DNA of 64,000 nucleotides from the NCBI GenBank assembly GCA_947625975.1, contig CANQQL010000002.1, forward strand, positions 4,863 through 68,862, given 5' to 3'. The DNA comes from an uncultured Bacilli bacterium (GTDB lineage Bacteria > Bacillota_I > Bacilli_A > RFN20 > CAG-826). The translations under genes were made by a program, and so were the position numbers. The stretch's first letter is position 1, and each line of letters begins with the position of its first letter. The notes beneath the pieces are model-generated. The model worked only from the letters and a program-made list of their open reading frames with translations. It searched no databases and was not told where the DNA came from. Below, one piece after another: positions 20,709 through 57,442 of the stretch.

Positions 20709-20711
20709 AGT

Positions 20712-33124: not shown

Positions 33125-33529
33125 TTATTTTAAATAGTTTAAGGACTGCTCTAATAATTTTTTTTCATTTTCTATTTCACACTTTTCTTTAAAATGCGAT
33201 ATTTTCATATAATATATTTTAGCAATCTTATCTTTGTCCATAATTTCCGGCTTTTGCTTATCGTGTAAACAAAAAACCAGTGGTTTAACCTTTGCTATTA
33301 TATCAGTTTGTGACAAGCTATATTCTTCTAACTCTCTGACAAGATCTTTTTGTGTCACTATGACTCCGGTAGTTTCATAACAAACCCTAATTGCGGATTG
33401 TAAATTGTTTTCTCCTAATTTAATTTCTCCTATAGGAAAAGAGATTCTGGTTTTATTGATGGTCTTTTCTTCAATTACCAAAATTTCTTTTTCAAAAATT
33501 GTTATAATCTGTACAAGCTTAATTTCCAT
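33125..33529 (-). CDS. Small Nudix-fold protein with a degenerate Nudix box
   Basis: GEIKLGENNLQSAIRVCYETTGV fits GX5EX7R..E..G, but REUXEE is replaced by RVCYET. Overlaps the addA stop by 1 nt (TAATG). Confidence 0.55.
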   Translation of the reverse strand: MEIKLVQIITIFEKEILVIEEKTINKTRISFPIGEIKLGENNLQSAIRVCYETTGVIVTQKDLVRELEEYSLSQTDIIAKVKPLVFCLHDKQKPEIMDKDKIAKIYYMKISHFKEKCEIENEKKLLEQSLNYLK

Positions 33530-36500: not shown

Positions 36501-36585
36501 TTTTTCCAGAGCCTGCTCCGGCTGACACAATCGCATTGACATTACGAATATTTATTGCTTTTAATTGCTCGCTAGTCCACGCCAT
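33529..36585 (-). CDS. addA: ATP-dependent helicase/nuclease subunit A (AddA/RexA), compact 1018-aa form
   Basis: UvrD-type Walker A AGAGSGKT, DEYQDT, and the C-terminal PD-(D/E)xK motif VIDLLL...IKIIDYKT. Confidence 0.9.
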   Translation of the reverse strand: MAWTSEQLKAINIRNVNAIVSAGAGSGKTAVLTARAFEIIKKKEAKVDELLILTFTNAAAHEMKDRLIAQLRKESFFAEADDVEGSQVTTFDAYSLYLVKKYNYFFDISKDVSIIDSNIVKIKEYEILEDIFNTLYDQGDQSFLDFIKTFVVKDDDVLKDYVVAILALADLKIDKEGFLNNANKEVFDVKFIDNLLEEVLIVAKSYLDDFIKMCDYFEDIDFANKIIEKINLLKSAQDYNDLFTIACGAKLVDAKNVSETDKQLKKSINDSFKELCSNIKNIGTREDVIEVFTNEQYKNAYNYLFKIAIELDKRLGEFKHRKNAYTFADIAKMALKLVDDEQINKEIKESIKFIMVDEYQDTSDIQEAFISKIANNNLFMVGDTKQSIYSFRNANCSIFQEKYEKYKQGINGEKIDLNYNFRSRQELVEDLNKIFSLLMTKNYGSVDYRIDHISKAGNTDYLNYGANNVSNHLEIYKYNSDSSTLKKAEYEAHLIAQDIVRKVNDKYLVYDAKNKNLRACKYADFAILIDKKAQFDLYKKVFDQYQFPLKTYRDEKIISSLVGNLFYDALTVILKIKNEQFDVEFKHTLIGLLRSFAYQVKDSEIYDAVKSDQLKKTKAYIDMNEIAKMTDVLPLSEIILCLYERLDIYNKLILIGDIEENQIILDHLYNVACDMQKLEYSLNDFAKYINDLKTLGIDLESSADNAVDNVVKLMTIHKSKGLEFPIVYLPSLETNFFLSNNRKSKFKTSLKYGLILPLINNNSSLNILDFLNKEDIKNKTRSERIRLIYVALTRAKEKAILLMDTKSEEESKDLRFSKSFYDFVNYYQNVASQKISEKEVDFQILTLKNNEANFDEEMEINLLTMPNIQMPENSEKEHASKALNNDANIEALNFGSTLHYILELTDFKTKDTSFINDKKIKNYIDKILSLDIFKDLSHYMIYKEYSFYDEKNEMIGVIDLLLIGESDIKIIDYKTKNIDDESYVHQLKVYQKFILEKFNKKVTTYLLSITEAKIKEIK

Positions 36586-38899
36586 TACTAAAGTCTCCTT
36601 TTAAATCTATTGTGACAAAGTCGCATTCTTTTACATTACATATATCACCAAACTCACAGTACTTACAAGGTGTATTTTGCTCTCCATTGATAATTTTTGG
36701 ATTAATAATAAAATTGCCCTCCTGAATCTTTTGATCTGCTTCTAAGTAATTGTTTTTGGTAACTTGGATAAGATTTAAAAATTCATCTCTTGAAAGGACT
36801 TTTGCATAGTGTACAAAAGAATTGTTTTTGGTCAAAGCCAAAGATTTAATATAGAAAGATTTACTATAAGTAGCATCAAATGTAACAATTTTATCTATTT
36901 CGTTGATTGTTTCTCCCACTAGTTTAAAGTTCTCAAAATAATGCATTTTATTTTCTTCAACATTACCAATTTCTGTCGATAATATATGCTGGATATAAAA
37001 TCCAATTAGTTCCTTATCTTTAAATGTATCACTCTCTGATAAGAGGAAGGCATAGGTGGGAAGTTGCAAAGAATAGCCATATGGAACTTCTTTTCGATTA
37101 TAGGATTCGGCGCCAGATTTATAGTCAATTATAGAGTAATAGTCATTTTTACCATCAGTCGTTACAATTATTTTATCAATTTTTCCATTCAAAAATACCT
37201 TATCTTTTAGTTTTATAGTAAATTCTTTCTCAAAATATACATCTTTTAAATTCATTTGTGACTTTTGTTTTATTAACATTTCACATAAAATTTTTAGTTC
37301 TTCTTTTTTTCGCTCTAATAAAATTTTTTCTTTTGCTTCAAAAACAAATTTATTTATGATTTTAGAATATAAACTTTCAAAATCAAAATTATCTTCATAA
37401 ACATGTGTTAAAATCTCATGAAACAAAGTACCTGTTTTCTGCGCAAAAGTCTCTTCAAAAGTGTTTAGATTTAAAATATTTTGCAAATAATATTTAAATT
37501 GGCATTGAAAAAAAGTTTTTATTTGTGAATAAGAATAGTTACGTTCATCTTTACAAACATAATTATTTAATGGTGTAAATGAGCGATTATAATTTAAATA
37601 TGAAATATTAAACAACTTCTGATAGGCCTGTCTTTCTGGGCTATCTAGATCAAATTTTCTTTTTAAATCCTCAAATTTTGCAAGTCTCTTTTCTCCTTCT
37701 AAACCCGAATAAATCTTTTGTGTCTTTATTTTTTCTACTTTCATTCCCAATTCTTTAATAAGATTCGAAGGATATAGTTTCTCTCCGGAATTAACTAAAG
37801 CATAAGAAATATAAATATTCTCGGCATGCGTAATTTGATCGATTATTTCATTCTTACTTACGCTGTTTTCTATAAAACTTGTTGATAACCGGAGCTTTGT
37901 TTTTTCTTTGTTTGTCAAATAATCATCATCTTTTTTAATAACTGGAAAACGTCCTTGATTAAACCCCAAAATAAAGTAAAATTTATTGGGGAAAATGAGT
38001 CCTAAATTCTCCTTATTATGAATAAATGGTGTCGCTTCTTGATAGATAGTTTCATTTTTTAGAATCGTTTTTAAGGTCTCTATTTGGCGAGAATTATTTT
38101 TTATTTCCCTTATCTTATTGGTTGTAATTAAATCTTTAATTAGATTTATCTCTTCATTAATAGAGAAATCATTATAAATTAAAAACTCCTCAACTCCACT
38201 GCTTTCTATTTGTTTAATGATATTTAAAATTTTCGGCATATTTAAAAGATTAGTTTTTGCCTTAATTAATTTTGATAAATTAAATTGCCGACACATTTTA
38301 TTAATTGCAAAAGCATATGAATCATTATTCACGACTAAAACTATATCTTTCTGATTTACTCCTTGCTTAAGTAAATCACATAGAGTATTGAAAAAATTAA
38401 AAACTTCATCATCAATATTTTCAAATTCAAAGACAGAAGGTAAAAATTCACCTCTGTCAAATCCTATATAATTTGCTTTAATTTTCCAAAAGTCAAGTAC
38501 TGTCTCTAATTCTTTATCTTCATTTCCATATCCCACAATGTATATTGGCTTAGAGTTCAATTCATATTCTAAATATTCGTTTTTTTGGAGATAACCCTGG
38601 GCATTTAACTCTTCATAAAGCTCAACTAATTGCGTAGCCTTTTCATTGTAATAATTTTTTGGCAAGAAATAAATATTATCGATTAACAACTTTGCATTAT
38701 TATACGATTTGTTAAATTTGTTCATCGTATAAATTATGGCATTTATATCATATTTGCCGTAAAAATTTTCCAAAATTTCTTGTTTAGTATAAAATTTAAA
38801 ATTTTTCAACTGCCCATGTTGAAAATAAGTAATGATATCCTGATAATATTTTCGCGGTGCGATTATGATGAATCGCTCATCACTTATTTTTAGTTGCAT
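36572..38899 (-). CDS. addB: Helicase/nuclease subunit B (AddB/RexB), compact 775-aa form lacking the N-terminal Walker A
   Basis: C-terminal nuclease motif YSIIDYKSG. Fe-S cysteines FQCQFKY and PCKYCEFGDIC. 14-nt overlap with addA. Confidence 0.85.
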   Translation of the reverse strand: MQLKISDERFIIIAPRKYYQDIITYFQHGQLKNFKFYTKQEILENFYGKYDINAIIYTMNKFNKSYNNAKLLIDNIYFLPKNYYNEKATQLVELYEELNAQGYLQKNEYLEYELNSKPIYIVGYGNEDKELETVLDFWKIKANYIGFDRGEFLPSVFEFENIDDEVFNFFNTLCDLLKQGVNQKDIVLVVNNDSYAFAINKMCRQFNLSKLIKAKTNLLNMPKILNIIKQIESSGVEEFLIYNDFSINEEINLIKDLITTNKIREIKNNSRQIETLKTILKNETIYQEATPFIHNKENLGLIFPNKFYFILGFNQGRFPVIKKDDDYLTNKEKTKLRLSTSFIENSVSKNEIIDQITHAENIYISYALVNSGEKLYPSNLIKELGMKVEKIKTQKIYSGLEGEKRLAKFEDLKRKFDLDSPERQAYQKLFNISYLNYNRSFTPLNNYVCKDERNYSYSQIKTFFQCQFKYYLQNILNLNTFEETFAQKTGTLFHEILTHVYEDNFDFESLYSKIINKFVFEAKEKILLERKKEELKILCEMLIKQKSQMNLKDVYFEKEFTIKLKDKVFLNGKIDKIIVTTDGKNDYYSIIDYKSGAESYNRKEVPYGYSLQLPTYAFLLSESDTFKDKELIGFYIQHILSTEIGNVEENKMHYFENFKLVGETINEIDKIVTFDATYSKSFYIKSLALTKNNSFVHYAKVLSRDEFLNLIQVTKNNYLEADQKIQEGNFIINPKIINGEQNTPCKYCEFGDICNVKECDFVTIDLKGDFSNGVD

Positions 38900-40466: not shown

Positions 40467-41744
40467 TTAATATCGTTTACTTTGGCATGTTTTTTGATAT
40501 AAATTTAAAAATTTATTTTTTAAAAAATCCGACTTCTTAAATCTAAAATTTTCATTGTCACAGAAAGAATTATTTTTTACAAATAATATGTCTTGTAATG
40601 AAAAAATCGTAACATGAGCATTTGATTTAAGCATAATATCTTTTACCCTCTCAACAATATTTTCATTGCTCATACCTTTTACATTCAAAAATTTTTGATA
40701 TGTGTCTTTTAAACTATCATCAACTCTTAATTTATTAATTAAAGAGCAATTATCATTATCATTTAAGTATAAGATACTTTTTTCATGTTCAAAGAAAGAA
40801 TTTTTGTTAATTAAAGAATCTACTCTTATGACTTCAAAATATGAAGCTTTATTTACTCCTTCGCATATTAATTTACTTTTTTCGAAATTATTAAGTTTGA
40901 CAAAAATATAATTGTTTATCTTTTCCGCATTTAAATCTTTTTCATTTATTATTAATAAGTCGTATAACTTTAATGCATTTTTTATTCCCTTGTTCAAAAA
41001 TTTATAATATTTTCGTTCTTTTTTTTCCATAAGTGCATTTTTATCTAAAGCAAAACAATCTTGGTTACTCCACACATCTACTGAATCCCAAGACAAAGAA
41101 AAATTAAAGGCACCGATTATTTTAATATTCTTGCTTTTGGCGTATTTTTTTAACTTCAAATATTGGGAAAACGCCAAATATTGCATAGCTACATAATCTT
41201 CAAAAATATCTAAATTTTTTTCTTTATATAAGACAAGTTCTTCTTGATTATGTTCTTTAAAAGGATTAGGCCATTCACACCATGGCAAATAATTAAACTT
41301 TTCTTTTAAACACATAAATAAAGCATAATCCTCTAACCAAAACTTATTTTTTGCATAAAATTTTTGAATTTGGACTTTCTCTTTTTCCTTTACTGAGACT
41401 AATGCATTCTTCAACAAAGTCAAACGATGAAGATGTAAATAATTAAAATCAATTCTTCGATTATTATAATTTTTGGTATGCGCTACAAGTTCTTCTTTTT
41501 TCAAATAGCCTTTCTTTACTAAATGTTCTAAATCAATAAAGTAAGGATTTAGCGCAAACGTGGAATAAAATGAAACTTCTAGATTACTACATTTTGCGTC
41601 ATTAATCGGCATTATCTGCCAATATTTTTGACCTGCTAATTTTAATAATTTTACAAATCTTTTTGCCTCTACTCCAAAATTACCAATTCCGTATTTGGAA
41701 GGTAATGCCGTGATACTAAGTAATAATCCGCTTCCTCTTTCCAT
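40467..41744 (-). CDS. GH77 4-alpha-glucanotransferase (MalQ)-like protein, shortened and with a divergent catalytic core
   Basis: The N-terminus matches amylomaltase (GLLLSITALPSKYGIGNFG...YWQIMPIN...NPYFIDL...WLEDYALFM). It is only 425 aa, and the canonical GDxPI, RIDH and AEDLG blocks are not intact. Confidence 0.6.
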   Translation of the reverse strand: MERGSGLLLSITALPSKYGIGNFGVEAKRFVKLLKLAGQKYWQIMPINDAKCSNLEVSFYSTFALNPYFIDLEHLVKKGYLKKEELVAHTKNYNNRRIDFNYLHLHRLTLLKNALVSVKEKEKVQIQKFYAKNKFWLEDYALFMCLKEKFNYLPWCEWPNPFKEHNQEELVLYKEKNLDIFEDYVAMQYLAFSQYLKLKKYAKSKNIKIIGAFNFSLSWDSVDVWSNQDCFALDKNALMEKKERKYYKFLNKGIKNALKLYDLLIINEKDLNAEKINNYIFVKLNNFEKSKLICEGVNKASYFEVIRVDSLINKNSFFEHEKSILYLNDNDNCSLINKLRVDDSLKDTYQKFLNVKGMSNENIVERVKDIMLKSNAHVTIFSLQDILFVKNNSFCDNENFRFKKSDFLKNKFLNLYQKTCQSKRY

Positions 41745-41745
41745 A

Positions 41746-42993
41746 TTATCCTTTCATTAATGTCTCAATTTCTTCTATATCTTTCGCTATCTCCAGCGAT
41801 AAACATTCTGAACCATCCTCGGTAACTAAAACATCATCTTCAATACGAATACCGATTTTCAATTCTTTAATATATAGGCCCGGCTCTACAGTTATAACAT
41901 TTCCTTTTGTTAGAGGTAATTCTCTTAAAGATATATCATGCGTATCTAACCCAAGATGATGAGAAATATTATGGTAATAATATTTGGAGATTTCCTCTAA
42001 ATCGCTTATTAAGCCCATTTTTATTAACTCTTTTGCCATAAACATTTTAGCTTCTTCTTGCAATTTTTTTATTGTCAATCCCGGTTTAATTAAAGAAATA
42101 ATGTATTTGTTACAATTTAAGACTATTTCATAAATCTTTTTTTGTTCTTCGCTATATTTCCCATTGATTGGATAAGTGCGAGAAATATCGGCTTTATACT
42201 CATCATTATCTGATCCTAAATCAAATAAAATAAGATCGCCATCATTCATTTTGCTCATTGGATGAGGATAATGTAATATAGTTGCATTAATGCCACTTGC
42301 CGCGATTGTATTAAAAGATAATTTGGCATTATTATTTAAAGCTATTATATATTTAAATAGTGCTGCCATCTCATATTCATATTTATTTGGTTTTAATTGT
42401 TTTAAAATAGCTTGTAAACCCAGATTGGTATTATGAATTGCCTGCCTTATTTTTTCAATTTCATGAGCAGATTTAATCATTCTCAAAAGCTTAAGATTTT
42501 GGGAAATATCTATAAATTTCAAATGAGAAAAGTTTTCTTTTAAGAATTTTTGATAGCCACTTAAAGAAACAAATTCATTCATATTTCCGTAATTTGCTGC
42601 CGATTCATAATCTAGACATATTGTCACATTAGTAAAACTATTGATTAACTTGGTAAGCTCATCGGAAAAATCTTCAACAAATAATATTTCCTCTATACCG
42701 GAAATTTCCCGAGCTTCCTCTACCTTTAACCGAATACCTGTCCATTTTTCTTTTAATTCGTCAAATTTTTGAATAAACAACAAAGTTTTTGTTTTGCTTT
42801 CCTTTTTTACAAAAACTAAAACAGTATCCGCTTGGTTTATTCCCGTCAAATAGAAAAAATTATAATCAATTTGAAATTCAAAAGCTTCATCAGCGCTTTT
42901 TCTTATCTCTGATCCACCAAAAATTATTGTTATTGAATTATTTGGTAAGTCGGCAATAAACTTATTTTGACGTTCAATTCTTTCCTTTAACAT
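41746..42993 (-). CDS. Xaa-Pro aminopeptidase (M24B)
   Basis: DLGSDNDEYKADISRT, HHLGLDTHD, VEPGLY, IRIEDDV. Confidence 0.9.
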   Translation of the reverse strand: MLKERIERQNKFIADLPNNSITIIFGGSEIRKSADEAFEFQIDYNFFYLTGINQADTVLVFVKKESKTKTLLFIQKFDELKEKWTGIRLKVEEAREISGIEEILFVEDFSDELTKLINSFTNVTICLDYESAANYGNMNEFVSLSGYQKFLKENFSHLKFIDISQNLKLLRMIKSAHEIEKIRQAIHNTNLGLQAILKQLKPNKYEYEMAALFKYIIALNNNAKLSFNTIAASGINATILHYPHPMSKMNDGDLILFDLGSDNDEYKADISRTYPINGKYSEEQKKIYEIVLNCNKYIISLIKPGLTIKKLQEEAKMFMAKELIKMGLISDLEEISKYYYHNISHHLGLDTHDISLRELPLTKGNVITVEPGLYIKELKIGIRIEDDVLVTEDGSECLSLEIAKDIEEIETLMKG

Positions 42994-43008
42994 AAATCAT
43001 ACTCCCTT

Positions 43009-43821
43009 TTATAAATTTTTAATTTTCTCTATTGCTTTATTTAGATATTCGCATTCAATATCTTCTACTTCCCCTTTATCTACAAGGCGAGATATTTCTT
43101 CTTTTAATGGTAATTGACCTAAAATATCCAAATTGAAATCTTTTGCTACTTCTTCAAGATGCGATTTACCATAAATATAAATTTTTTCTTGGCATTTTGA
43201 GCATTCGACATAGGACATATTTTCGACAATACCTAAAATAGATATATTCATGGCACTTGCCATTTTAATGGCCTTTTTTACAATCGTAGAAACTAAATCT
43301 TGTGGCGAAGTGACAATTATAATACCATCAATAGGTAAGTATTGAAAAGTTGTTAAAGCAACATCTCCTGTTCCTGGTGGCATATCGACAATCATATAAT
43401 CAACATTATGCCATAAAACATCTGTATAAAATTGTTTAACTAAGTCGCCTATCATTGGTCCTCGCCAAATAATTGGATCTTCTTCGTTTTCCAATAATAA
43501 ATTAGCAGACATTATTTGGATACCGGTTTTAGATATTGCCGGATATATAATTCCTTGTTCTCCCATGGCTTTTTCAGTAATACCAAAAGACTTCGGAATA
43601 GAAGGTCCGGTTATATCGGCGTCAAGTATTCCGATACGATAACCTTCTTTGGAAAGCTGACTAGCAATCAAAGAAGAAACCAAACTCTTGCCTACGCCTC
43701 CCTTTCCGGAAATTACACCTATTATTTTCTTTACTTTTGAGAGTTCATTCAATTTTGCTTTTTCAATACGGTGATCACAACTTTGACCACATTCATTACA
43801 ATTTCCATTACATTGTGCCAT
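43009..43821 (-). CDS. Mrp/NBP35/ApbC-family Fe-S cluster carrier ATPase
   Basis: Deviant Walker A SGKGGVGKS, CxxC SKCQEKI, N-terminal Cys-rich CNGNCNECGQSC. The ATG at 43821 has a GAGGA RBS; the track start is a TTG. Confidence 0.88.
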   Translation of the reverse strand: MAQCNGNCNECGQSCDHRIEKAKLNELSKVKKIIGVISGKGGVGKSLVSSLIASQLSKEGYRIGILDADITGPSIPKSFGITEKAMGEQGIIYPAISKTGIQIMSANLLLENEEDPIIWRGPMIGDLVKQFYTDVLWHNVDYMIVDMPPGTGDVALTTFQYLPIDGIIIVTSPQDLVSTIVKKAIKMASAMNISILGIVENMSYVECSKCQEKIYIYGKSHLEEVAKDFNLDILGQLPLKEEISRLVDKGEVEDIECEYLNKAIEKIKNL

Positions 43822-43825
43822 AATA

Positions 43826-44431
43826 TTATTCCTCAACTTTTTTATATTTTATTTTGTTTTCAATTATTTCAATCATTGTGCCTTGATATAATAATTGCTT
43901 AAATTCATGATAAACCTCTTCGCCAACAAAAACTTTTAAAGTTATTAATTCGTTAAACTCTGTATTTTCTATGATACTATGCGCATCTTTGCATATATGA
44001 ACAACATTATCATAATTCATGTAACTAGTAGTTATATTACAAAGATATCCCTGGCATATTGCGTATTTTTCGACAGTTTTTATGACTAAATTAGCCATAT
44101 CAACATAAGTCCTTAAGAGACGAGCTGCTCCCAATAATGTTCCTCCGAAGTACCGCACCACTACTAATAGAACATTACTGAAATTATTTTTAATTAACAA
44201 ATCTAGCATAGGGCGTCCTGCCGTACCTTGTGGCTCTCCATCATCACTTGACTTTTGGAAATCTCCGATTATTCCCGCATAACAATAATGTTTTGCTTTC
44301 GGATATCTTTTCTTAATTTTAGTAATTTCTTGCTTAATATCCTCTTTGTTTGTGAGTGGTTTTATTATTCCAATGAAGCGTGAATGTTCAACTTCTAATT
44401 CTTTAATATATTCTGATACTATTGAATACAA
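43826..44431 (-). CDS. yigZ: YigZ/IMPACT-family protein (UPF0029)
   Basis: SDDGEPQGTAGRPMLDLL and VVVRYFGGTLLG. Confidence 0.85.
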   Translation of the reverse strand: MYSIVSEYIKELEVEHSRFIGIIKPLTNKEDIKQEITKIKKRYPKAKHYCYAGIIGDFQKSSDDGEPQGTAGRPMLDLLIKNNFSNVLLVVVRYFGGTLLGAARLLRTYVDMANLVIKTVEKYAICQGYLCNITTSYMNYDNVVHICKDAHSIIENTEFNELITLKVFVGEEVYHEFKQLLYQGTMIEIIENKIKYKKVEE

Positions 44432-44478: not shown

Positions 44479-44507
44479 GCAAAAACCCTTAAGATTTCTT
44501 AAGGGTT
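44479..44507 (-). terminator. Strong terminator of the giant ORF
   Basis: Perfect 10-bp stem AACCCTTAAG-attt-CTTAAGGGTT, followed on the minus strand by TTTTTG. Confidence 0.85.
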
Positions 44508-44520: not shown

Positions 44521-47500
44521 TTAATTTGCCAAGGCATTAAACATATTCATAATATCATCATGAACATTTTTGAATAGGTTTTTATTATTAACTATTGAAC
44601 TACGCTCAGTTAACATATCATTATAAGCAGTTTCAAAAGAAGACTTTCTTTCTTCTCCATTTGGAAATACTAAGAAGACAACATCCTTGTTACTATGTAC
44701 CATGGTACAAATGCCATTTTCTCCAATAAGTTTATCGTAAATACCTTTTTTATAAATGAATTTAGCAATCATGGAATCTTCATTAGTACTCTTGCTATAT
44801 AACGACTCTAAACAACTAACAATTTTTTGTGCGTTAGTCATTTCGGTCGGCATACCATTTTCTTCATAAGGATTATTAAGATTTAAATAGTTATTTTTTA
44901 CAGCAGTAATTACATTGATACTATCGATTGATGAAGATAGAGCATTTGCTTCTAATTCATTAAAGAGAGGATACGCAAAATCCTCGCCATTACTATAGAA
45001 CCAAAGTTTGCTATAATCATTTAAGCTATCTAAATAATAATCATCTAAGTAACCGGAATCTTTAATATTAGTGCTTAAGAAACCTGCTACAATCTCACTG
45101 GCAATTAAAGCCTTTCCATTTTGGAAGCATCCTTTAAAAATTCCATCGACCGCTTTTGCATTAAGAGACGTGAAGACATTTTCTCCATCCTGTGGTATGT
45201 TACCTATTACTTCTTTAAGACTACTAGCAATAGAATTTAAAGCACCGCCTTCAATATCTATTTGTTTTTGACGATCCTCACTTGAAGGATATGTAGTTTC
45301 TATTTTTTCAAAGATTTTATCAAAGACATTTTTATGCTCTGCATCATAATCATTTCTAATGTAATCCGCAAACCCTACTGAATTAATTGCATTTTTCAAA
45401 ACTAATCCACGGCAATCTTTGAAAATTTCAGAATCCAACAAAAATTGAATAAATGTTCCTAAGCCTTTTTCACCAAAACTCGAAATTTCGAATTCGCTAC
45501 CAAACTTGATATTGTAATTAACTTGTCCATCAACATCAACTTCACAAATTTCGTTAAGCAATTTATTTATGTTATTTAATTCTATATTATAATCTTCACG
45601 GCCAATCAAATAATTTTCTTTATTTTCTCCGTTATATTTAGAAAATTCCGATAAGGCAACATTTTCGAAAGCTTTTTTGATATAAACTGGAACAGCATCA
45701 TAACATAAATCACTCGAATTTATAGTTTTTAAGATATTAGTAATGGAATCCGGCGACATCTTTTCGACATTGATATCTTGAATTTGTGTAACAGTTTCAT
45801 CAGTAACACTATCAAATATATTAAAAATATCATCAATTTCTTTTTCCCAAGATTTGCTATTCTGTTTATTAAATTCAATGATTTTATTTCTTGCATTCTT
45901 ATGTGCTGTCACACCCGGCATGTAGTCATATAAACCACCATCAGTTTTTGCATCATATATAACTTTAGATAAGCTAGATTCATCAAATATTAACCACATT
46001 AATTGAATAAATACTGTATCATTAGTCTCTAGACTATTCGCATCCATCAGATCCTTTGCATTAAATTGATTAAATACACTTGAATTTGCTAGTGCATTTA
46101 AAGTTTCTTTAATAATTTCCTCATTTTCACCTTTTATAAAATTAATATCTAGTTTATTTCTTAATGCATCGGTAAGTGATGTAAAATTATTCATAATAGT
46201 CGTCAAATAACTAATTTCTTCATCATCATAATGATCGTACTCTTTAGTATCGGCGTTATAAGTATATTCCGGTGTTGCTGCTCTTAGATTAAGTTCATAT
46301 CGTGTAGTTCCATCTAAAGTAGTAAAGTCAGATGTATCACATTGTTCGGTAAACATATGTATATAATGTGGAATAGCTCTAAATAAAAGCTTAGATTTAT
46401 TTAAAAGAGGTAAAAGATCATCAGCCTTTTCTTCAAGCCATCCTGTGTCATTTCCGGCATTATCGAAATCAACACCCGATGAACTTTGAATCAATTCAAA
46501 GAGATTATCTATTTCTCCTTTTGAGGCTTCTTTTGTAATCCATTCATCATTTAAATTTTCATTGCAACGATTATTTAGAATTGAGTCTCGAACAATTTCT
46601 AGTGTTGTCTTATATTTTAATTCAGTATTATTTATTTTATCAGTAGTACCAATAACAGCTTCCTCACCCAAAGTAGCATTCAAAAATTCTGTGACAATTC
46701 CCTCAAAGACGGTAGCATCAGCCTCGTTTTCTAAGTTTTCATTTTGCAAAGTATTAAATATTTTGGAATCATGTAAGAAGATTAAGGCATCTTTTAAATT
46801 GGTTAATTGTTCATTGTCATTACGTACATCATTAAAATCTGATCCTTTAATAGATTGAATTTTTTCTAAAGCGCTATAAACGGTATTAATTTCGGCATTT
46901 CGTTCGTCAGCATTATCAAGATCTACAAGAGCCTGAACATTAATTCTTGAATTAATTTTTAAATCAATACCATTAAAATCTCCTACAACTGAAGCGGCAT
47001 CTTTAATAGCGTTTGCAATAGCCATTCTTAAAATATTGGAGTTATTAATACCCACAAAATTTTCTTCTTTAGCTGTAAACAAACGACGATATTCCGCTTT
47101 TGATGGATCATTTAATACTTTATCTAACCCATCACTTCCGGATGTGTTGGAAATTGGACCATCTCCTGCACCAATTAATTGAATCTCTTTAATAAAATCA
47201 AATAAAATGTCGATCTCATATTCCCAATTCTTTTTTTCTGATATTTCTGCAATAAATTCCGTAGTTTTCGAATAACTCTCGGGATTATCAATATCTGCCA
47301 AATTAAGTCCTTTTGTACTGATTAATTGATTTTTTAAAAATTCCCCAAAGCTATTTTCATCTGTAAATAACTGCGTGGTAGACAAAGCTTTAACCAAACT
47401 TCTTGTTAGCTCGGTATCACTATTTATAAAGTCGATATTATCTAATGCGACTCCCTTTTCATTTAATTTTTGTGCACTATCAAGTAATGTAGAGAATGTT

Positions 47501-50172
47501 TCTCCCTCTGCTTTCCAATCTTTAATATTTCTAAATGAAACTTCTGTACTATCAATAGAATCTAATAAATCTGATAAATGTTTGTCTAAGATTGGTCCAA
47601 GTCCAACGCTTAGAAGCTGAGATTCACCAATTGAATCAAATAGTGAAACGATAGAGTCTGGAGCGATGACTTCCGGATCCAAATAATCTGGTGAGTCATC
47701 TTGGCTAAGTAATTTTGTAAAATTACATTCTTTAAATGTATCAAAGAAAGTACCAAATTTGTCAATTTCTGCATTCCAGTCAGCAGTTTCCAACTCACTA
47801 CTATCCGTTATATTTCCATCTTCATAGCCAATTTTACTGAACAAACTATCAATAACACATAAGAAATTTTCTTTTTTATTCTCTACATTTGGATTAAAAA
47901 TTTTAGAATCTCGGATATGGCCTAAGACTGTTGTTAAGTCACTGGATTCAATTTTATTAAGCTGTTCTTCTAAATTACCTTCACCGGACATAGCATCAAC
48001 AATATTAAATAGAGATGGTGCCATATCTAAAATGTTATATAATTCGTCACCTAAGTTTTCTACGTCATAGTCTAAAGAATCTTTATCCAAGCCTATTTCA
48101 GTTAATTGTTCAGAGTTACTATCGATAACTCCTTTTAAAACTTGTGGAATAGTGGCTTTCAAAATTTTGGAATTATCTATTTTTCTTAATGGTTCCTTTA
48201 AACTATTGCAAACTTCTTCATTGAAATCAAAGCTTCCTGTTAGAAGCATGTCTTTCGTATTATCATTTGTTGCAATTTCTGCGACAATATCAAGCATTGT
48301 TCCAAACTCTTTTTTGTAATCCAATCGTGTTTCAAGACTACTTACTGCATCATCGATTTTCGTACTATCCAATTCCATTTGTAATTGAGAAGTAATGGAT
48401 GACACTATTAAATTAACTGCACTAGTGGATAATTTATTGAAAGAGTTAAATAATAAGTCACTATCTAATAAGCAACGACCTTCTAATAATTTTCCGCTTT
48501 CATTATCTATATTTACAAAATTATCATTTTCACGTTCACCAATTAAAATAGGTACCAAATCCTTAGAATGGGCTAAGATGGCATCTAATAACGCATTTAA
48601 ATTACTATCTTCTGGTTGTTGTTCTTCCGTAGTTTCTTCGTTCTTTAAAGATTTTTTACTTGCGACATCATTATTTACTACTAAAGTCTTGTCAATATAA
48701 GTCACTAAAGCATTTTCCGTAGTTTTATTTATGCGATAAATTGAATCATATATCGTCGCAAATTCATTTCCAAACTTTATATTTTCATATATTTCCCAAT
48801 CTGTAGGTAAATAGTCATGTAAAGGATATAAATAATTGCCTTCTTCATCTTGAACATTAGCCATTGTCCAAACAAGAGCGGGTAAGACTTGATCCATAAA
48901 CTTAATACTATCAAAATTCTCAAAAGTTTTAATTAAGAGTGTGTGTACACTTTCATCTTCTGAGTTTAAAATATTTTTTATCATTGAAGTTGGATTGTTA
49001 AGCACTTCTTCATCCACAATTCCTGATTCATATAAATCAGAATAAATGCCAACTAGAGTGTTTAAATCATTTTTCCAATCAATTTCATCTAAGTTGATTT
49101 TTTCTGAATCAATATAGTTATTAACTCCCTCCATGTTAAGTGCAAAGTCAGCGGCAATCGGCAAAACATTCATAACTAGATTTGATGTGGTGAGTTGAGC
49201 CACTAATACAGAGATAAGCTCACTATCTAACAAAATAGAGCCATTAACCGCAATTGTACTACTATCCACTATATCAATTGCTCCACTTGCAAAAAGAATT
49301 GTGCCAAGTGACAAAAGGGAAGACAATTCATCTGTAAAATACATTGTAGAATCGCTTGTGCTCGTGATGATGTTTGCAAGTTTCATATCCAATGTGTTTC
49401 CATCACTGTCTTTTGTCCAATTAAATAAAGCTTTTGCTAAAATAGAGTTGTCATATGCATCAATCCAACTCATTAATTGATTATAGGTTTCGCTATCTAA
49501 ATTTTCTTTTTCAACAGTTTGTGCATTATGAAAAGATTTTGAAATGGAATTCAAGACTGAACTAAAAGGCACAACAATCATTGATAAAACTAGTCCGCTT
49601 TTCACTATTCCTTCAATAAAACCAATTAAACGCATTTTGACTTCTTTGCGTAATTTTTTCGAAATAATATGTTTGAATATAAGGTGATACAAAAGCGTTG
49701 CTAAAAGGTTTCCAATAATTATAGTTACTAACGCCAAACAAATAAAAGCAATAAATCTAATAATTATCAAAGCCAATTCAGTTACTATAGCAATTGTTCT
49801 TGGATCTGATAATGTTTTTTCCAAACTACCACCTGAACTTGTGCCCAAAGCCGCTAATGCTTCAACTAAAGTTTCTTTAACAGATGTTATATTTATTGTT
49901 AATCCATTAACTTCAGCAGTCTGTGAACCAATAAAATTAGTTAAATCGACATCCGCAATAGCATTTCCGAGTTGACCAGCAAATACATAAGAAAGAATTA
50001 CAAGTATGCCAATAAAAATAAGCCTGAAAGAAGCATTCCAAACTCCTCTCAATAAACCTATAAGTCCACCTAATAGCACTAAAACAATGATAACTATAAA
50101 AGCTATATTGCAAATAGTCGAAATCATTTGTGGATCAATATTAGGTAAAGTTGATAAAATTAGAAAATTCAT
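44521..50172 (-). CDS. Giant (1883 aa) membrane-anchored protein: CvpA-like N-terminal TM domain + long acidic repeat-containing region of unknown family
   Basis: One uninterrupted 5.65-kb ORF. The first 200 aa or so hold 4-5 hydrophobic helices (LIGLLRGVWNASFRLIFIGILVILSYVFAG). The remainder is N/D/E/S-rich with recurring motifs. It has its own terminator. Confidence 0.85.
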   Translation of the reverse strand: MNFLILSTLPNIDPQMISTICNIAFIVIIVLVLLGGLIGLLRGVWNASFRLIFIGILVILSYVFAGQLGNAIADVDLTNFIGSQTAEVNGLTINITSVKETLVEALAALGTSSGGSLEKTLSDPRTIAIVTELALIIIRFIAFICLALVTIIIGNLLATLLYHLIFKHIISKKLRKEVKMRLIGFIEGIVKSGLVLSMIVVPFSSVLNSISKSFHNAQTVEKENLDSETYNQLMSWIDAYDNSILAKALFNWTKDSDGNTLDMKLANIITSTSDSTMYFTDELSSLLSLGTILFASGAIDIVDSSTIAVNGSILLDSELISVLVAQLTTSNLVMNVLPIAADFALNMEGVNNYIDSEKINLDEIDWKNDLNTLVGIYSDLYESGIVDEEVLNNPTSMIKNILNSEDESVHTLLIKTFENFDSIKFMDQVLPALVWTMANVQDEEGNYLYPLHDYLPTDWEIYENIKFGNEFATIYDSIYRINKTTENALVTYIDKTLVVNNDVASKKSLKNEETTEEQQPEDSNLNALLDAILAHSKDLVPILIGERENDNFVNIDNESGKLLEGRCLLDSDLLFNSFNKLSTSAVNLIVSSITSQLQMELDSTKIDDAVSSLETRLDYKKEFGTMLDIVAEIATNDNTKDMLLTGSFDFNEEVCNSLKEPLRKIDNSKILKATIPQVLKGVIDSNSEQLTEIGLDKDSLDYDVENLGDELYNILDMAPSLFNIVDAMSGEGNLEEQLNKIESSDLTTVLGHIRDSKIFNPNVENKKENFLCVIDSLFSKIGYEDGNITDSSELETADWNAEIDKFGTFFDTFKECNFTKLLSQDDSPDYLDPEVIAPDSIVSLFDSIGESQLLSVGLGPILDKHLSDLLDSIDSTEVSFRNIKDWKAEGETFSTLLDSAQKLNEKGVALDNIDFINSDTELTRSLVKALSTTQLFTDENSFGEFLKNQLISTKGLNLADIDNPESYSKTTEFIAEISEKKNWEYEIDILFDFIKEIQLIGAGDGPISNTSGSDGLDKVLNDPSKAEYRRLFTAKEENFVGINNSNILRMAIANAIKDAASVVGDFNGIDLKINSRINVQALVDLDNADERNAEINTVYSALEKIQSIKGSDFNDVRNDNEQLTNLKDALIFLHDSKIFNTLQNENLENEADATVFEGIVTEFLNATLGEEAVIGTTDKINNTELKYKTTLEIVRDSILNNRCNENLNDEWITKEASKGEIDNLFELIQSSSGVDFDNAGNDTGWLEEKADDLLPLLNKSKLLFRAIPHYIHMFTEQCDTSDFTTLDGTTRYELNLRAATPEYTYNADTKEYDHYDDEEISYLTTIMNNFTSLTDALRNKLDINFIKGENEEIIKETLNALANSSVFNQFNAKDLMDANSLETNDTVFIQLMWLIFDESSLSKVIYDAKTDGGLYDYMPGVTAHKNARNKIIEFNKQNSKSWEKEIDDIFNIFDSVTDETVTQIQDINVEKMSPDSITNILKTINSSDLCYDAVPVYIKKAFENVALSEFSKYNGENKENYLIGREDYNIELNNINKLLNEICEVDVDGQVNYNIKFGSEFEISSFGEKGLGTFIQFLLDSEIFKDCRGLVLKNAINSVGFADYIRNDYDAEHKNVFDKIFEKIETTYPSSEDRQKQIDIEGGALNSIASSLKEVIGNIPQDGENVFTSLNAKAVDGIFKGCFQNGKALIASEIVAGFLSTNIKDSGYLDDYYLDSLNDYSKLWFYSNGEDFAYPLFNELEANALSSSIDSINVITAVKNNYLNLNNPYEENGMPTEMTNAQKIVSCLESLYSKSTNEDSMIAKFIYKKGIYDKLIGENGICTMVHSNKDVVFLVFPNGEERKSSFETAYNDMLTERSSIVNNKNLFKNVHDDIMNMFNALAN
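45222..49185 (-). repeat. Intragenic array of about 12 degenerate 90-115-aa protein repeat modules within the giant ORF
   Basis: Motif A (DWNAEIDKFGTFF, NWEYEIDILFDFI, SWEKEIDDIFNIF, DWKAEGETFSTLL, GEIDNLFELI) alternates with motif B (IDNSKILKATIP, IRDSKIFN, LHDSKIFN, LNKSKLLFRAIP, LANSSVFN, INSSDLCYDAVP, LLDSEIFK, INNSNILRMAI). Spacing is roughly regular by residue count. Confidence 0.5.
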
Positions 50173-50355
50173 AAAACAACACCTCGCAAAGTATTATAAC
50201 ATATACATTTAAAAAATATATATGTTATTTAGATTTGTTTTAATTTTACCAATAAATGTCTTTAGCTATAGTCAAATTTAAAAATTTTGTTTTTTTCAAG
50301 TAGCAACACACATTTTTGATAAAATTTAAACATTAACAGTTAATTTAATATTTTG

Positions 50356-50364
50356 TGCTATAAT
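50356..50364 (+). promoter_or_regulatory. Extended -10 promoter element (TGCTATAAT) for the CPBP-TraX-trxA genes
   Basis: TGnTATAAT, 28 nt upstream of the ATG at 50392. AGGTGA RBS. Confidence 0.45.
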
Positions 50365-50391
50365 ATATTAATGTGAAAAAGGTGAATTTTT

Positions 50392-51114
50392 ATGCAAACT
50401 AAAAACAAAATTACATATTTAAATATCGTAAAGCATGCCATATGCTACTTAATCAGTTTCGGTGGGCTATATGCATTTTTTATTTTACTTTCTTTAATTT
50501 GTCAAGCCTTCCCCTCATTCACAGCGCTAGATGTCAATGTTCAAAATATCATTGTTCAAGTTCTTGCCTATGGATTTACTTTCGTGGCTATTATAATTTA
50601 CCTTTACAATATTGCTTTAAAAGATATTCTTAATCAATTTAAGAATTTACAAAACATAGCGAGTGGTTTTCTATATGGTGCAGGCTTACTAGTTGGCACT
50701 ATTATAATAGGCATAATTTGTCAAACAATTGGAAATTTAATTGGTGCACCAGTAACACCGAATGAAAATGAAGAGGCTATAAATAACGCAGCATTATCTC
50801 TACCACTTTTGACATGTCTCATGACCATAATTTTTGCACCTGTTACAGAAGAAATCGGCTACAGATTTGGAATATTTGGGGGAATTCATCAATATAATCG
50901 ATGGCTTGCTTATATTGTTACTTCTTTAATTTTCGCTTTAATTCACACTAACTTCGATACTGGAAATTTTGTCAATGAACTCCTTAACTTGCCTTCATAC
51001 ATATTTGCTGGAGCATGGCTTTGCTTCACCTATGAAAGAAGTGGCTCGATAGTAACATCTATAACCGCTCATATGACAAATAATCTCGTGGCATTTTTAT
51101 TATCTGTATTATAG
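50392..51114 (+). CDS. CPBP-family intramembrane glutamic endopeptidase (CAAX protease/Abi family)
   Basis: PVTEEIGYRFG (EExxxR), FALIH, and HMTNN near the C-terminus. Polytopic. Confidence 0.85.
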   Translation: MQTKNKITYLNIVKHAICYLISFGGLYAFFILLSLICQAFPSFTALDVNVQNIIVQVLAYGFTFVAIIIYLYNIALKDILNQFKNLQNIASGFLYGAGLLVGTIIIGIICQTIGNLIGAPVTPNENEEAINNAALSLPLLTCLMTIIFAPVTEEIGYRFGIFGGIHQYNRWLAYIVTSLIFALIHTNFDTGNFVNELLNLPSYIFAGAWLCFTYERSGSIVTSITAHMTNNLVAFLLSVL

Positions 51115-51121
51115 AAAAAGC

Positions 51122-51961
51122 ATGAAAAACACCCGCATTTTAGATGGATTTTGGCTAAGAATTATCGCTATTATTACAATGATTATTGATCATTTGGCAA
51201 TTTTATTAGTGTCTTTTGATTTGTTATCGGCTAGTTCTATTTTATATTTTATTATGCGCATTTTTGGAAGAATTTCTTTTCCATTATACGCTTTGGGCAT
51301 TGTCGAAGGCGTACTAAATACCAAAAATTTAAAAAAATATCTTTTACGTTTAGGCTTCATGGCAATAAGTATGGGGCTAGCGATAGTTATAATTGATAAA
51401 CTTATTGTATTTCATTTAACATTTGTGGAAAATATATTTTTAACTCTATTTTTAGGTGCCACCGCAATCTCTTTCTTAAATAGTAAAAAACAATGGATTA
51501 AATTAATTAGTTTCGTTCCACTTCTTCTATCTTTTTTCGGCAATTTTACAGTTTTATCCCCATATTTTAATCCTCAATATGGCATTTATGGTGTATTAAT
51601 GATTATCTTAATGTATTTAGGAAATAAATTGGCTCACTCCTATTCCGTAAAGCAAGCCAAAAAATATTCAATATCATTCTTAGATTATTCAACTACTTCT
51701 TATTATCAAAAAAATATAAATTTTGGATACGCTATAGCAATACTTTTACTTAATGTTTTATATTATCTTATCCTAGAATTAATGCCATCTTTAACGAATT
51801 TTTTCTTATTAAGCTTGCAAGATTATAGTATTATTTCAATCTTTATTGTGATACTATATAATGGAAAACGTGGATATGATTCTAAATGGTTTAGAACATT
51901 TAATTATATGTTTTATCCTATGCATCTACTAATTCTTTATCTAATTTTATATATATTGTAA
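51122..51961 (+). CDS. TraX-family membrane protein
   Basis: FWLRIIAIITMIIDHLA N-terminal signature. Polytopic, 279 aa. Confidence 0.7.
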   Translation: MKNTRILDGFWLRIIAIITMIIDHLAILLVSFDLLSASSILYFIMRIFGRISFPLYALGIVEGVLNTKNLKKYLLRLGFMAISMGLAIVIIDKLIVFHLTFVENIFLTLFLGATAISFLNSKKQWIKLISFVPLLLSFFGNFTVLSPYFNPQYGIYGVLMIILMYLGNKLAHSYSVKQAKKYSISFLDYSTTSYYQKNINFGYAIAILLLNVLYYLILELMPSLTNFFLLSLQDYSIISIFIVILYNGKRGYDSKWFRTFNYMFYPMHLLILYLILYIL

Positions 51962-51973
51962 AGGAGAAATACT

Positions 51974-52285
51974 ATGATAAAATACATTGAAAATACAGTT
52001 GAATTCGAGAATTTCATTAAAGATGGGCAAGTTGTTGTAGATTTTTATGCTAACTGGTGTGGACCATGTAAAATGCTATCTCCGGTTTTAGAGGAATTAG
52101 ATCAGGAGATTGAGAACTTAAAGATTGCTAAAGTTAATGTCGATGATTTTGGTGACTTAGCAGAAAAATACACCATATTTTCTATTCCGACTTTAATTCT
52201 TATAAAAGATGGCCAAGAAGTAGCAAAACAAATTGGTTTTTTACCAAAAGATTCATTGGTACATTTAATTAAAAAAACTTTTTAA
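51974..52285 (+). CDS. trxA: Thioredoxin
   Basis: VDFYANWCGPCKM active site. 103 aa. Confidence 0.95.
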   Translation: MIKYIENTVEFENFIKDGQVVVDFYANWCGPCKMLSPVLEELDQEIENLKIAKVNVDDFGDLAEKYTIFSIPTLILIKDGQEVAKQIGFLPKDSLVHLIKKTF

Positions 52286-57351: not shown

Positions 57352-57442
57352 TGGCGGAGCAAGAGAGACTCGAACTCTCGCACCAGTTACCCGATCTACG
57401 TCCTTAGCAGGGACGCCCCTTCACCAACTTGGGTATTGCTCC
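57352..57442 (-). tRNA. tRNA-Ser (anticodon GCU), long variable arm, CCA encoded
   Basis: The reverse complement reads GGAGCAATACCCAAGTTGGTGAAGGGGCGTCCCTGCTAAGGACGTAGATCGGGTAACTGGTGCGAGAGTTCGAGTCTCTCTTGCTCCGCCA (91 nt). Anticodon arm CGTCC-CTGCTAA-GGACG. Confidence 0.9.

Follow-up and report, generated by a model that had tools for sequence, protein, structure and literature searches.

Results

The giant gene and its control signals

The window, meaning the whole stretch of 64,000 nucleotides that was analysed, carries one very long gene on the minus strand. The features of the locus are as follows.

41746..44431, minus strand: downstream neighbours, YigZ/Impact_N, Mrp-type ATPase and Xaa-Pro aminopeptidase (Pfam)
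44484..44507, minus strand: perfect 10-bp-stem hairpin AACCCUUAAG-AAAU-CUUAAGGGUU, 3' of the giant gene stop codon
44521..50172, minus strand: giant gene, complete, 1883 codons plus stop, ATG start
49513..50172, minus strand: CvpA-like membrane domain, aa 1–220 (AlphaFold2 secondary structure, hydropathy, Pfam Colicin_V)
49627..49677, minus strand: K/R-rich loop 3, aa 166–182 (KHIISKKLRKEVKMRLI), predicted cytoplasmic (charge counts, conservation)
50180..50185, minus strand: ribosome-binding site GAGGTG, 7 nt 5' of the ATG, in the conserved upstream region
50193..50201, minus strand: extended −10 promoter element TGtTATAAT, invariant in the upstream-region alignment of five relatives
50200..50224, minus strand: AT-rich imperfect palindrome CATATATA...TATATG over the −35 region (conserved columns of the upstream alignment)
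50392..52285, plus strand: divergent neighbours, CPBP/Rce1-like protease, TraX and thioredoxin (Pfam)

Translation of the ORF at 44521..50172 (minus strand) gives a product of 1883 aa. Its C-terminal region is rich in N (9.8%), D (9.2%), S (8.5%) and E (8.4%), poor in Cys (0.72%) and acidic (D+E 17.6% vs K+R 8.2%). The ORF and these counts bear out the earlier note, which had described a single 5.65-kb ORF with an acidic, N/D/E/S-rich and Cys-poor C-terminal part. The probability that the ORF is an artefact, either a long frame arising by chance in AT-rich DNA or a pseudogene, is negligible: full-length homologues with 22–55% identity and kept synteny were found, the AlphaFold2 models are confident, and the promoter, the ribosome-binding site and the terminator are all conserved. 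This reading was ruled out by conservation, and nothing was found in its favour.

The intergenic region 50173–50391, located 5' of the gene, carries the conserved TGtTATAAT and GAGGTG elements; a generic promoter scan was uninformative (36 sites vs 36.7 expected from shuffles). Judged by its sequence, the palindrome over the −35 region is a possible candidate operator. The hairpin downstream has a folding energy of −12.9 kcal/mol (z = −3.7) and a short U-tract (UUU after the stem), and it was not flagged by a consensus terminator scan. Its stem sequence is repeated 3' of the gene in five relatives (L005, L006, L007, L001 and L009), and its features point to a likely terminator or attenuator. 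The gene had been proposed to be monocistronic, with its own control region and terminator. The promoter and the hairpin are both conserved, but the monocistronic layout is specific to the clade of the window protein, because in distant relatives no gap separates yigZ from the stop codon of the giant gene, or the two overlap. An Rfam scan of the window revealed tRNAs only.

The N-terminal membrane domain and its predicted topology

Four long helices (aa 14–42, 44–73, 124–169 and 181–219) were found in the membrane domain by AlphaFold2. The window protein matches Pfam Colicin_V (PF02674) with E=0.042 and 14.3 bits, under the gathering score of 29.3, and the family consensus reaches 15.8 bits. 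The family member P0050 scores 30.1 bits, above the cut-off, over profile positions 5–139 of 144. Since P0050 also matches the family profile of the giant protein (E=3e-140), CvpA homology extends to the giant family by transitivity. Of 39 family members scanned, 7 matched Colicin_V, the sole Pfam family matched by more than two of them. Alignment of the family profile with E. coli CvpA by hhalign gave E=0.011 over only 33 columns, which cover helix 1 and the RG motif. According to the profiles and models, aa 1–220 are a divergent four-helix CvpA-type domain, recognised via family members rather than by the window protein's own score. A CvpA-type domain of four to five helices had been suggested for residues 1–200 or so; the family-level evidence upholds the CvpA assignment, and AlphaFold2 supports four helices, not five.

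The giant protein shares with the CvpA family the four-helix inner-membrane domain, the G-x-x-RG motif after helix 1 and a C-terminus that varies in length and is predicted to be extracytoplasmic. It differs in falling under the Pfam cut-off, in an extra insert of 50 residues, containing a small beta hairpin, that separates helices 2 and 3, and in its C-terminal extension, which consists of 1650 residues of helical repeats and not of a short tail or a protease. M. tuberculosis MarP, with its protease arm, is likewise a CvpA-type fusion with an extracytoplasmic C-terminal domain.

In all 40 homologues compared, there are 2.2 K/R in loop 1 and 7.1 in loop 3, with almost no D/E in either (for loop 3, a mean of 7.1 K/R and 0.3 D/E per 17 residues), the N-terminus, loop 2 and the stretch that follows TM4 being acidic (40/40). 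Conservation in the protein peaks in loop 3 (0.69), with F166, K167, R175 and R181 kept at ≥90%, and conservation drops outward from the membrane, from 0.69 to 0.30. E. coli CvpA has been predicted to span the membrane four times and to have a periplasmic C-terminus of variable length (bioRxiv 10.1101/2020.09.25.314492). From the charge bias and this published prediction, loop 3 is predicted to face the cytoplasm and the repeat domain is probably extracytoplasmic, with both termini outside. The termini are placed on the same side of the membrane because AlphaFold2 gives four helices, not five. The K+R (8.2%) and Cys (0.72%) contents resemble those of the window's two putative secreted proteins, unlike those of its cytoplasmic ones. 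Alpha-solenoids in general are commoner in cytoplasmic proteins, which counts against an extracellular placement. The C-terminus (...DDIMNMFNALAN) contains no LPXTG motif and no hydrophobic segment occurs after aa 336, so the protein is not of the LPXTG sortase-anchored type.

The repeat array

The repeats span approximately aa 240–1815 and comprise 15–16 degenerate units of 86–152 aa. Their register was taken from the self-alignment of the family profile (all units on the minus strand).

49363..49512, minus strand: linker and partial first unit, aa 221–270, motif B-like AYDNS (Y240, S243 invariant)
49102..49362, minus strand: repeat 1, aa 271–357, motif A aa 279, motif B Ser aa 330
48799..49101, minus strand: repeat 2, aa 358–458, W366 invariant, Ser-equivalent aa 423
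48343..48798, minus strand: repeat 3, aa 459–610, motif A aa 467 (E470 invariant), B-like aa 537 and 571
48079..48342, minus strand: repeat 4, aa 611–698, aa 619 (K620, E622 conserved), S668
47803..48078, minus strand: repeat 5, aa 699–790, aa 707 (E710), S756
47542..47802, minus strand: repeat 6, aa 791–877, W799, E802, S851
47251..47541, minus strand: repeat 7, aa 878–974, W886, E889, G890, aa 933
46927..47250, minus strand: repeat 8, aa 975–1082, W983, E986, S1045
46549..46926, minus strand: repeat 9, aa 1083–1208, R1091, E1094, S1136
46252..46548, minus strand: repeat 10, aa 1209–1307, aa 1217 (E1220), S1260
45874..46251, minus strand: repeat 11, aa 1308–1433, aa 1316, S1364
45616..45873, minus strand: repeat 12, aa 1434–1519, W1442, E1445, S1487
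45286..45615, minus strand: repeat 13, aa 1520–1629, aa 1528, S1581
45028..45285, minus strand: repeat 14, aa 1630–1715, aa 1609/1638 and 1673; weak, less certain
44731..45027, minus strand: repeat 15, aa 1716–1814, W1724, aa 1809; weak, less certain
44524..44730, minus strand: C-terminal tail, aa 1815–1883, lowest conservation of the protein (0.30)

Repeat 3, with its 152 aa, probably represents two units, and AlphaFold2 shows a disordered insert in it (aa 500–520, pLDDT <50). The internal periodicity is significant: the family profile aligned to itself gave off-diagonal matches with E=1e-32, 4e-20 and 5e-20 in a coherent register, whereas the column-shuffled controls reached only E of about 0.5 and the reversed one E=0.03. 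Motif A occurs five times (0.19 in shuffles) and motif B eight times (0.33 in shuffles). About 12 bipartite modules with a period of about 90–115 aa had been read by eye; the repeats themselves proved robust against the controls, but their number (15–16) and unit lengths had to be revised. The enrichment of both motifs likewise stands, and the spacing from motif A to motif B, previously given as about 40–55 aa, was measured as 43–62 aa. A single-unit repeat HMM found 11–13 units in the window protein; with the same HMM, which is too insensitive on distant members, family length correlated with repeat number at r=0.22. The repeats are ancient, because the units share approximately 16% identity while orthologues share 38–55%.

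The fold and the search for known families

Two AlphaFold2 models (pLDDT 80.7 and 86.3, pTM 0.61 and 0.70) are nearly all helix, and the repeat region is thus modelled as an almost all-helical, solenoid-like fold. Helices begin at W799, W886 and W983 in the AlphaFold2 models, and S668 and S851 lie between helices. In each unit, motif A (aromatic-x2-E) would open the first helix, which is long, and the Ser of motif B would be placed at a helix–helix junction. On the models, the residues of both motifs are most simply understood as caps maintaining the fold, not as catalytic ones.

The C-terminal 1650 aa or so had been said to lack a recognisable family, and the searches agree. Neither Pfam and NCBIfam nor a PDB sequence search with the window protein yielded anything significant for this region, Pfam added no domains in 43 further family members (the largest of 2996 aa), and Foldseek found no match at E ≤0.001 for either half against PDB or for the C-terminal half against viral structures. 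The best look-alikes, none of them significant, were cohesin SA2, importins, CAND1 and huntingtin (E 0.035–0.05, TM-score 0.11–0.14); flexible solenoids usually score low in global TM-score. The protein resembles the HEAT/ARM solenoids (importin-beta, cohesin SA2/STAG2, CAND1, huntingtin) in its stacked arrays of short helices. It differs from them in its unit of 86–152 aa with 3–5 helices (approximately 40 aa in HEAT or ARM) and in a repeat domain predicted to be extracellular and membrane-anchored. No HEAT, ARM or TPR matches were found by Pfam in the window protein or the 43 members scanned. Three-helix repeats of the spectrin type (approximately 106 aa, helices of approximately 30 residues) were rejected, since the helices of the model have 13–23 residues; spectrin-family entries were absent from the Foldseek matches listed.

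The family and its gene neighbourhood

A word-indexed search detected 42 homologues at 22–55% identity, and an exhaustive profile search extended the family to at least 301 clusters at 50% identity. Among the matches listed (the best ~151 of 301), the architecture is the same and the match always starts at approximately aa 210–250; members are 1200 to 3000 aa in length, the long ones aligning with the profile in as many as seven stretches. All homologues come from gut or rumen metagenomes. Cluster look-ups returned only "hypothetical protein" entries from metagenome bins and no characterised homologue, and a literature search for CvpA and "giant protein" found no paper.

The genes for CPBP, TraX and thioredoxin on one side and yigZ–pepP on the other were found in all eight lineages examined, and the giant gene is single-copy and fixed in its chromosomal position in lineages down to 20–25% identity. 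It is inherited vertically, as a single copy, in uncultured gut and rumen Bacilli belonging at least partly to the GTDB order RFN20. An origin from a mobile element or phage was rejected on the ground of this fixed synteny. Slow rearrangement of the genome, and not a shared function, could account for the kept neighbours. Processing of an N-terminal leader by CPBP/TraX was also considered and dropped, as distant homologues have only 2–8 residues before helix 1.

The homologue RUG131 belongs to RFN20/CAG-826; CAG-826 has been predicted to lack peptidoglycan and RFN20 to lack sortases (PMC10868615). The genome of the window carries MreB and DapA and may therefore have a wall; within the window, MreB is present without mreCD.

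Discussion

We tentatively propose, at not quite even chances, that the giant protein acts outside the cell as a membrane-anchored scaffold of the envelope, a role suggested by its sequence and models. The acidic solenoid would project tens of nanometres from the membrane and would serve the cell surface as a structural or organising element on which other envelope components dock or by which they are spaced. Surface proteins of this lineage would need their own membrane anchor, because sortases are missing and, according to prediction, at least one family has no peptidoglycan. A surface, cytoskeletal or envelope-organising role had been considered in the earlier note, and the predicted topology favours the surface or envelope over the cytoskeleton.

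A comparable protein is Ebh of Staphylococcus aureus, a giant membrane-anchored extracytoplasmic helical-repeat protein thought to aid envelope integrity. Ebh has an N-terminal signal peptide, a C-terminal anchor and near-identical FIVAR/GA/DUF1542 units recognised by Pfam. Both proteins are very large membrane-anchored helical-repeat arrays in Bacilli, but the likeness would lie in a possible mode of action, not in ancestry: the giant protein is anchored N-terminally and has a hydrophilic C-terminus, its repeats are ancient and each of them is distinct, and no FIVAR, GA or DUF1542 matches were found by Pfam in the window protein or in the family members scanned.

The solenoid might instead be the stalk or binding surface of an adhesin for the host or particles in the gut or rumen and not a housekeeping scaffold. 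The predicted extracellular topology, the fastest evolution in the distal repeats and tail, the lengths of 1200 to 3000 aa with up to seven profile stretches in the long members (among the matches listed) and the exclusive origin from gut or rumen metagenomes are all consistent with this, but it is unlikely in view of the single copy at a fixed chromosomal position in lineages down to 20–25% identity, of ancient repeats that are conserved individually without homogenisation, and of the absence of lectin, Ig-like or other adhesive domains in the 43 members scanned. By analogy with the variable periplasmic C-terminus proposed for CvpA and with the protease arm of MarP, the membrane domain could be the functional core (a channel, an export factor or an envelope-stress sensor) with the solenoid as its extracellular sensory or regulatory arm. 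The membrane domain is conserved best, above all loop 3, in which F166, K167, R175 and R181 count as invariant; the CvpA family has been connected with envelope stress, and the periplasmic C-terminus of CvpA was proposed to bind partners or sense stimuli (bioRxiv 10.1101/2020.09.25.314492). We consider this, too, rather improbable: 1650 residues would be very large for a sensor, known signalling or catalytic domains are absent according to Pfam and NCBIfam, and CvpA has no settled biochemical activity, which leaves such a reading unspecific.

There is only a slight chance that the repeat domain is cytoplasmic and forms a scaffold of the cytoskeleton or of cell division that is tethered to the membrane and possibly partners the solitary MreB. 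The charge bias in 40 of 40 homologues assigns loops 1 and 3 to the inside of the cell and the C-terminus to the outside, the published CvpA prediction concurs, the four AlphaFold2 helices, not five, leave the termini on the same side, and the K+R content is like that of secreted proteins. These arguments stand against the typically intracellular location of alpha-solenoids, including all the best Foldseek look-alikes, the presence of MreB without mreCD in the window, and the co-orientation with the genes of the cytoplasmic YigZ, Mrp and PepP. More far-reaching, and very doubtful, is the idea of a protein exoskeleton, in which the giant protein would be the surface element chiefly responsible for bearing load or defining shape, replacing wall functions in those RFN20 Bacilli that are predicted to lack peptidoglycan, with the invariant cytoplasmic K/R loop coupled across the membrane to the orphan MreB and with the CPBP protease and the TraX acyltransferase acting in processing or modification.

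Among the uncultured relatives of mycoplasmas, RFN20 and related orders are abundant in the guts of humans and animals, and their cell surface is almost uncharted. The gene described here is a 5.6-kb core gene held at one chromosomal position and represented by at least 301 clusters, nameless in databases. If the surface scaffold is real, its product would be a leading candidate for building and protecting the envelope in reduced, sortase-less and partly wall-less cells and for a target of antibodies or of enrichment of the lineage. It would also be a leading candidate for a new bacterial family of extracellular alpha-solenoids and a new C-terminal fusion partner of the CvpA domain.

Repeat array of the giant protein

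The giant gene (44521..50172, -) starts with ATG and encodes 1883 residues, as the earlier note had read it, and there is practically no doubt that it is a real gene. Past residue 215 the protein is rich in N (9.8%), D (9.2%), S (8.5%) and E (8.4%), poor in Cys (0.7%) and acidic (17.6% acidic vs 8.2% basic residues), again as described. In the form in which they were first proposed, motif A (at the start of a repeat unit) was counted 5 times vs 0.19 in 2000 shuffles, and motif B (Ser-containing, further along the same unit) 8 times vs 0.33 in as many shuffles, so that the proposed recurrence of both motifs was upheld. Since the patterns had been drawn up after viewing the sequence, an independent test was made, in which 22 family members were aligned and the family profile was compared with itself using hhalign. 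Off-diagonal alignments spanning more than 1000 columns were obtained at offsets of ~253 aa (E = 1e-32), ~87 aa (E = 4e-20) and ~433 aa (E = 5e-20); the remaining offsets fell close to multiples of 85-90 aa. Against itself, the profile scored 316 off the diagonal, whereas column-shuffled copies gave E ~0.5 at best (score ~20) and a reversed copy E = 0.03 (score 34). The internal periodicity is thus significant, and we are close to certain that a repeat array is present.

Aligned motif positions (aa) in the giant protein
Motif A (aromatic-x2-E): 279, 366, 467, 619, 707, 799, 886, 983, 1091, 1217, 1316, 1442, 1528, 1609/1638, 1724
Motif B Ser: 243, 330, 423, 571, 668, 756, 851, 933, 1045, 1136, 1260, 1364, 1487, 1581; weak sites near 1673 and 1809

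The repeat register is coherent across the self-alignment and divides the array into 15 units, each 86-152 aa long; as the longest (152 aa) probably represents two, there are 15-16 in all. The repetition and the order of the motifs therefore stood as first read by eye, but not the number (about 12) or the period (about 90-115 aa) of the modules, and the spacing from motif A to motif B is 43-62 aa rather than about 40-55. An HMM of one unit, built on hits from across the family, detected 11-13 units at a domain E-value of ≤0.01. The mean identity between units is only 16% in contrast to 38-55% between orthologues, which indicates that the array is ancient and that every unit has been retained individually. 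The top offset of the array (window 44731-49362), ~253 aa, corresponds to about three units, not one, which hints at growth by an old duplication of a three-unit block.

Distribution of the family

Word-indexed searches returned 42 proteins and then 22 more, all of them unnamed and from metagenome bins. When aa 228-1290 served as the profile in an exhaustive HMMER search (E ≤0.001), 301 clusters were obtained, including 226 with E ≤1e-30. In the best 150 of the 301 clusters, the match starts near residue 210-270 except in ~10 apparent fragments, so that an anchor followed by an array is the rule among them; the lengths in these 150 range from ~880 to 3000 aa. The gene was found in 17 GTDB species, all represented by metagenome bins from human, rumen, rabbit or mouse gut. 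One of these, the metagenome isolate RUG131, whose protein is 40% identical, belongs to the GTDB order RFN20, family CAG-826. According to a published survey, CAG-826 and CAG-288 are predicted to lack peptidoglycan and RFN20 to lack sortases (PMC10868615). No Pfam or NCBIfam model covers the repeat family and no literature on it was found, in agreement with the earlier suggestion that the repeats belong to no recognisable family.

Predicted fold, anchor and topology

Two overlapping AlphaFold2 models were built from a 40-sequence alignment (aa 1-1000, mean pLDDT 80.7, pTM 0.61; aa 861-1883, mean pLDDT 86.3, pTM 0.70). Both are nearly all helix with a few short hairpins. Every modelled unit opens with a long helix (17-23 residues) that begins at motif A (e.g. 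at W799, W886 and W983) and is followed by 2-4 shorter helices, and the motif B Ser falls where two helices meet (S668 between helices 652-667 and 669-685, S851 between 838-850 and 852-865). In view of these positions, the conserved Glu and Ser would most simply be helix-capping or packing residues. A Foldseek search of the PDB returned generic alpha-solenoids alone (cohesin SA2, importins, CAND1, FANCI, huntingtin) at E 0.035-0.05 and TM-score 0.11-0.14 for the best, and the viral structure library gave no match for the C-terminal half. The modelled repeat region is thus very likely solenoid-like, with no identifiable relative in either library.

The N-terminal part had been described as a CvpA-type membrane domain of 4-5 helices. 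AlphaFold2 places four long helices (aa 14-42, 44-73, 124-169 and 181-219), with a small insert carrying a beta hairpin between helices 2 and 3. Pfam Colicin_V (CvpA, PF02674) matched the window protein weakly (E = 0.042, 14.3 bits, cut-off 29.3). It matched 7 of the 39 family members scanned and was the sole family matched by more than two of them; the family member P0050, unmistakably homologous to the window protein, exceeds the cut-off (30.1 bits, profile positions 5-139 of 144). In a profile comparison with E. coli CvpA, the match was confined to helix 1 plus the RG motif behind it (E = 0.011). The anchor is therefore, with high probability, a divergent CvpA domain, as judged at the family level and by transitivity rather than from this sequence alone, and the protein is in the CvpA family only at its divergent edge.

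The charge pattern of the segments was the same in 40/40 aligned homologues.

Charge by segment (means over 40 aligned homologues)
N-terminus, aa 1-16: length 14.2 aa, K/R 0.1, D/E 1.3
Loop 1, aa 42-50: length 9.0 aa, K/R 2.2, D/E 0.1
Loop 2, aa 73-125: length 52.5 aa, K/R 2.3, D/E 6.3
Loop 3, aa 166-182: length 17.3 aa, K/R 7.1, D/E 0.3
After helix 4, aa 209-240: length 31.2 aa, K/R 2.4, D/E 5.3

The positive-inside rule predicts a cytoplasmic position for loops 1 and 3 and an outside one for both termini, in agreement with what has been predicted for CvpA of E. coli (bioRxiv 10.1101/2020.09.25.314492). The composition of the repeat region (K+R 8.2%, Cys 0.72%) lends weaker support to an outside location: it is similar to that of the two putative secreted proteins of the window (K+R 8.1-8.9%, Cys 0.4-0.9%), whereas the cytoplasmic proteins have 10-16% K+R and most of them more than 1% Cys.

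14053-15717, +, putative secreted Endonuclease I with Big_2 domain
57665-59224, +, putative secreted esterase with CBM26 starch-binding module

Conservation falls outwards from the membrane (loop 3, 0.69; proximal repeats, 0.42-0.49; distal repeats and tail, 0.30-0.40), the pattern expected if the tip of the protein faces the environment. The repeat domain is thus predicted, with fair assurance, to lie outside the membrane.

Transcription signals and gene neighbourhood

The gene had been credited with its own control region and terminator. The hairpin at 44484-44507, AACCCUUAAG-AAAU-CUUAAGGGUU, has the perfect 10-bp stem reported for it (-12.9 kcal/mol, z = -3.7 vs shuffles). The stem is followed by just three U residues, and the hairpin was not picked up in the consensus terminator scan. 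The stem AACCCTTAAG...CTTAAGGGTT, which includes two CTTAAG palindromes, recurs nearly letter for letter 3' of the gene in five relatives (L005, L006, L007, L001 and L009) with giant proteins of only 38-54% identity; two more distant relatives have another GC-rich hairpin at the same position. This preservation goes beyond what a terminator requires, and the stem could also be a protein-binding site or regulatory RNA. Three elements of the upstream intergenic region are conserved in five relatives:

50180-50185, ribosome-binding site GAGGTG
50193-50201, extended -10 element TGtTATAAT
50200-50224, -, AT-rich imperfect palindrome CATATATA-TTTTTAAA-TGTATATG

The palindrome overlaps the -35 region of the giant gene promoter and is a possible operator; the divergent CPBP gene shares this intergenic region. 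In relatives further removed, yigZ either directly adjoins the giant gene's stop codon or runs across it, so that a separate promoter and terminator are valid for this clade but not for the whole family.

The immediate neighbours were alike in 8/8 lineages examined, down to 20-25% protein identity.

50392-52285, +, CPBP (Rce1-like) protease, TraX and thioredoxin, on the divergent side
41746-44431, -, yigZ (Impact_N) and Xaa-Pro aminopeptidase (pepP), on the other side
33529-38899, -, AddA/AddB-type pair (UvrD-helicase and PD-(D/E)XK), downstream of the block

The conserved block is thioredoxin-TraX-CPBP facing giant-yigZ-(mrp)-pepP, an Mrp-type ATPase often lying between the last two; the outer flanks differ between lineages. 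Four relatives (L003/L004, L022, L023 and L027) also have the AddA/AddB-type pair close to their giant gene, which shows the reach of the synteny. E. coli too has a yigZ-peptidase pair (pepQ-yigZ), so this pairing is probably independent of the giant gene. The CPBP and TraX pairing is uncharacterised in its own right.

Other features of the window are:

5521-6543, +, MreB (Pfam E=9e-109)
18153-26987, Wzx/Wzy-type surface polysaccharide cluster (Wzz-like protein, GT2, flippase, Wzy-like polymerase, GT4 enzymes, initiating sugar transferase)
40467-41744, -, GH77 4-alpha-glucanotransferase, 425 aa
52342-52498, +, two tandem tRNA genes directly past the thioredoxin gene
57355-57442, -, third tRNA gene

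MreB is solitary, as had been noticed: neither mreC nor mreD follows it, the next two ORFs being on the opposite strand. The family of at least one relative is predicted to be without peptidoglycan, a situation reminiscent of wall-less bacteria that retain MreB. The window also encodes DapA, and the cell may have a wall. Judging from the polysaccharide cluster, its surface probably bears a capsule or exopolysaccharide. The best Pfam stretch of the GH77 ORF covers only profile positions 2-224 of 465, and the syntenic gene in L001 encodes 490 aa; the ORF in the window could be a truncated copy or could begin at another start site.

Possible role

The best-supported reading is that the giant protein would be a membrane-anchored, extracytoplasmic, acidic alpha-solenoid, which might give structure or organisation to the cell surface in a lineage predicted to be unable to use sortase anchoring and, in part, to be without a wall. 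Such a scaffold function is plausible, falling a little short of probable. A scaffold on the cytoplasmic side would conflict with the topology evidence. The variable tip and length would suit an adhesin, but the gene is core, syntenic and single-copy, and no adhesive domain was found in the 43 family members scanned. A sensor or transport role centred on CvpA, with the solenoid as its arm, would be favoured by the membrane domain and loop 3 being so extremely conserved.

For the surface solenoid, the closest parallel in mode of action would be staphylococcal Ebh and similar giant envelope proteins made of helical repeats; the protein also resembles CvpA fusions such as MarP. Tests of membership placed it outside the Ebh-type proteins, the LPXTG surface proteins, the spectrin family and, by sequence, the HEAT/ARM proteins. 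The anchor type and fold class are known; the repeat family and the architecture are new. Long-standing questions are not yet made testable by this finding without culture or proteomics. What it adds to a poorly understood lineage is a large, conserved, confidently modelled and wholly unannotated family with a proposed function at the cell surface.
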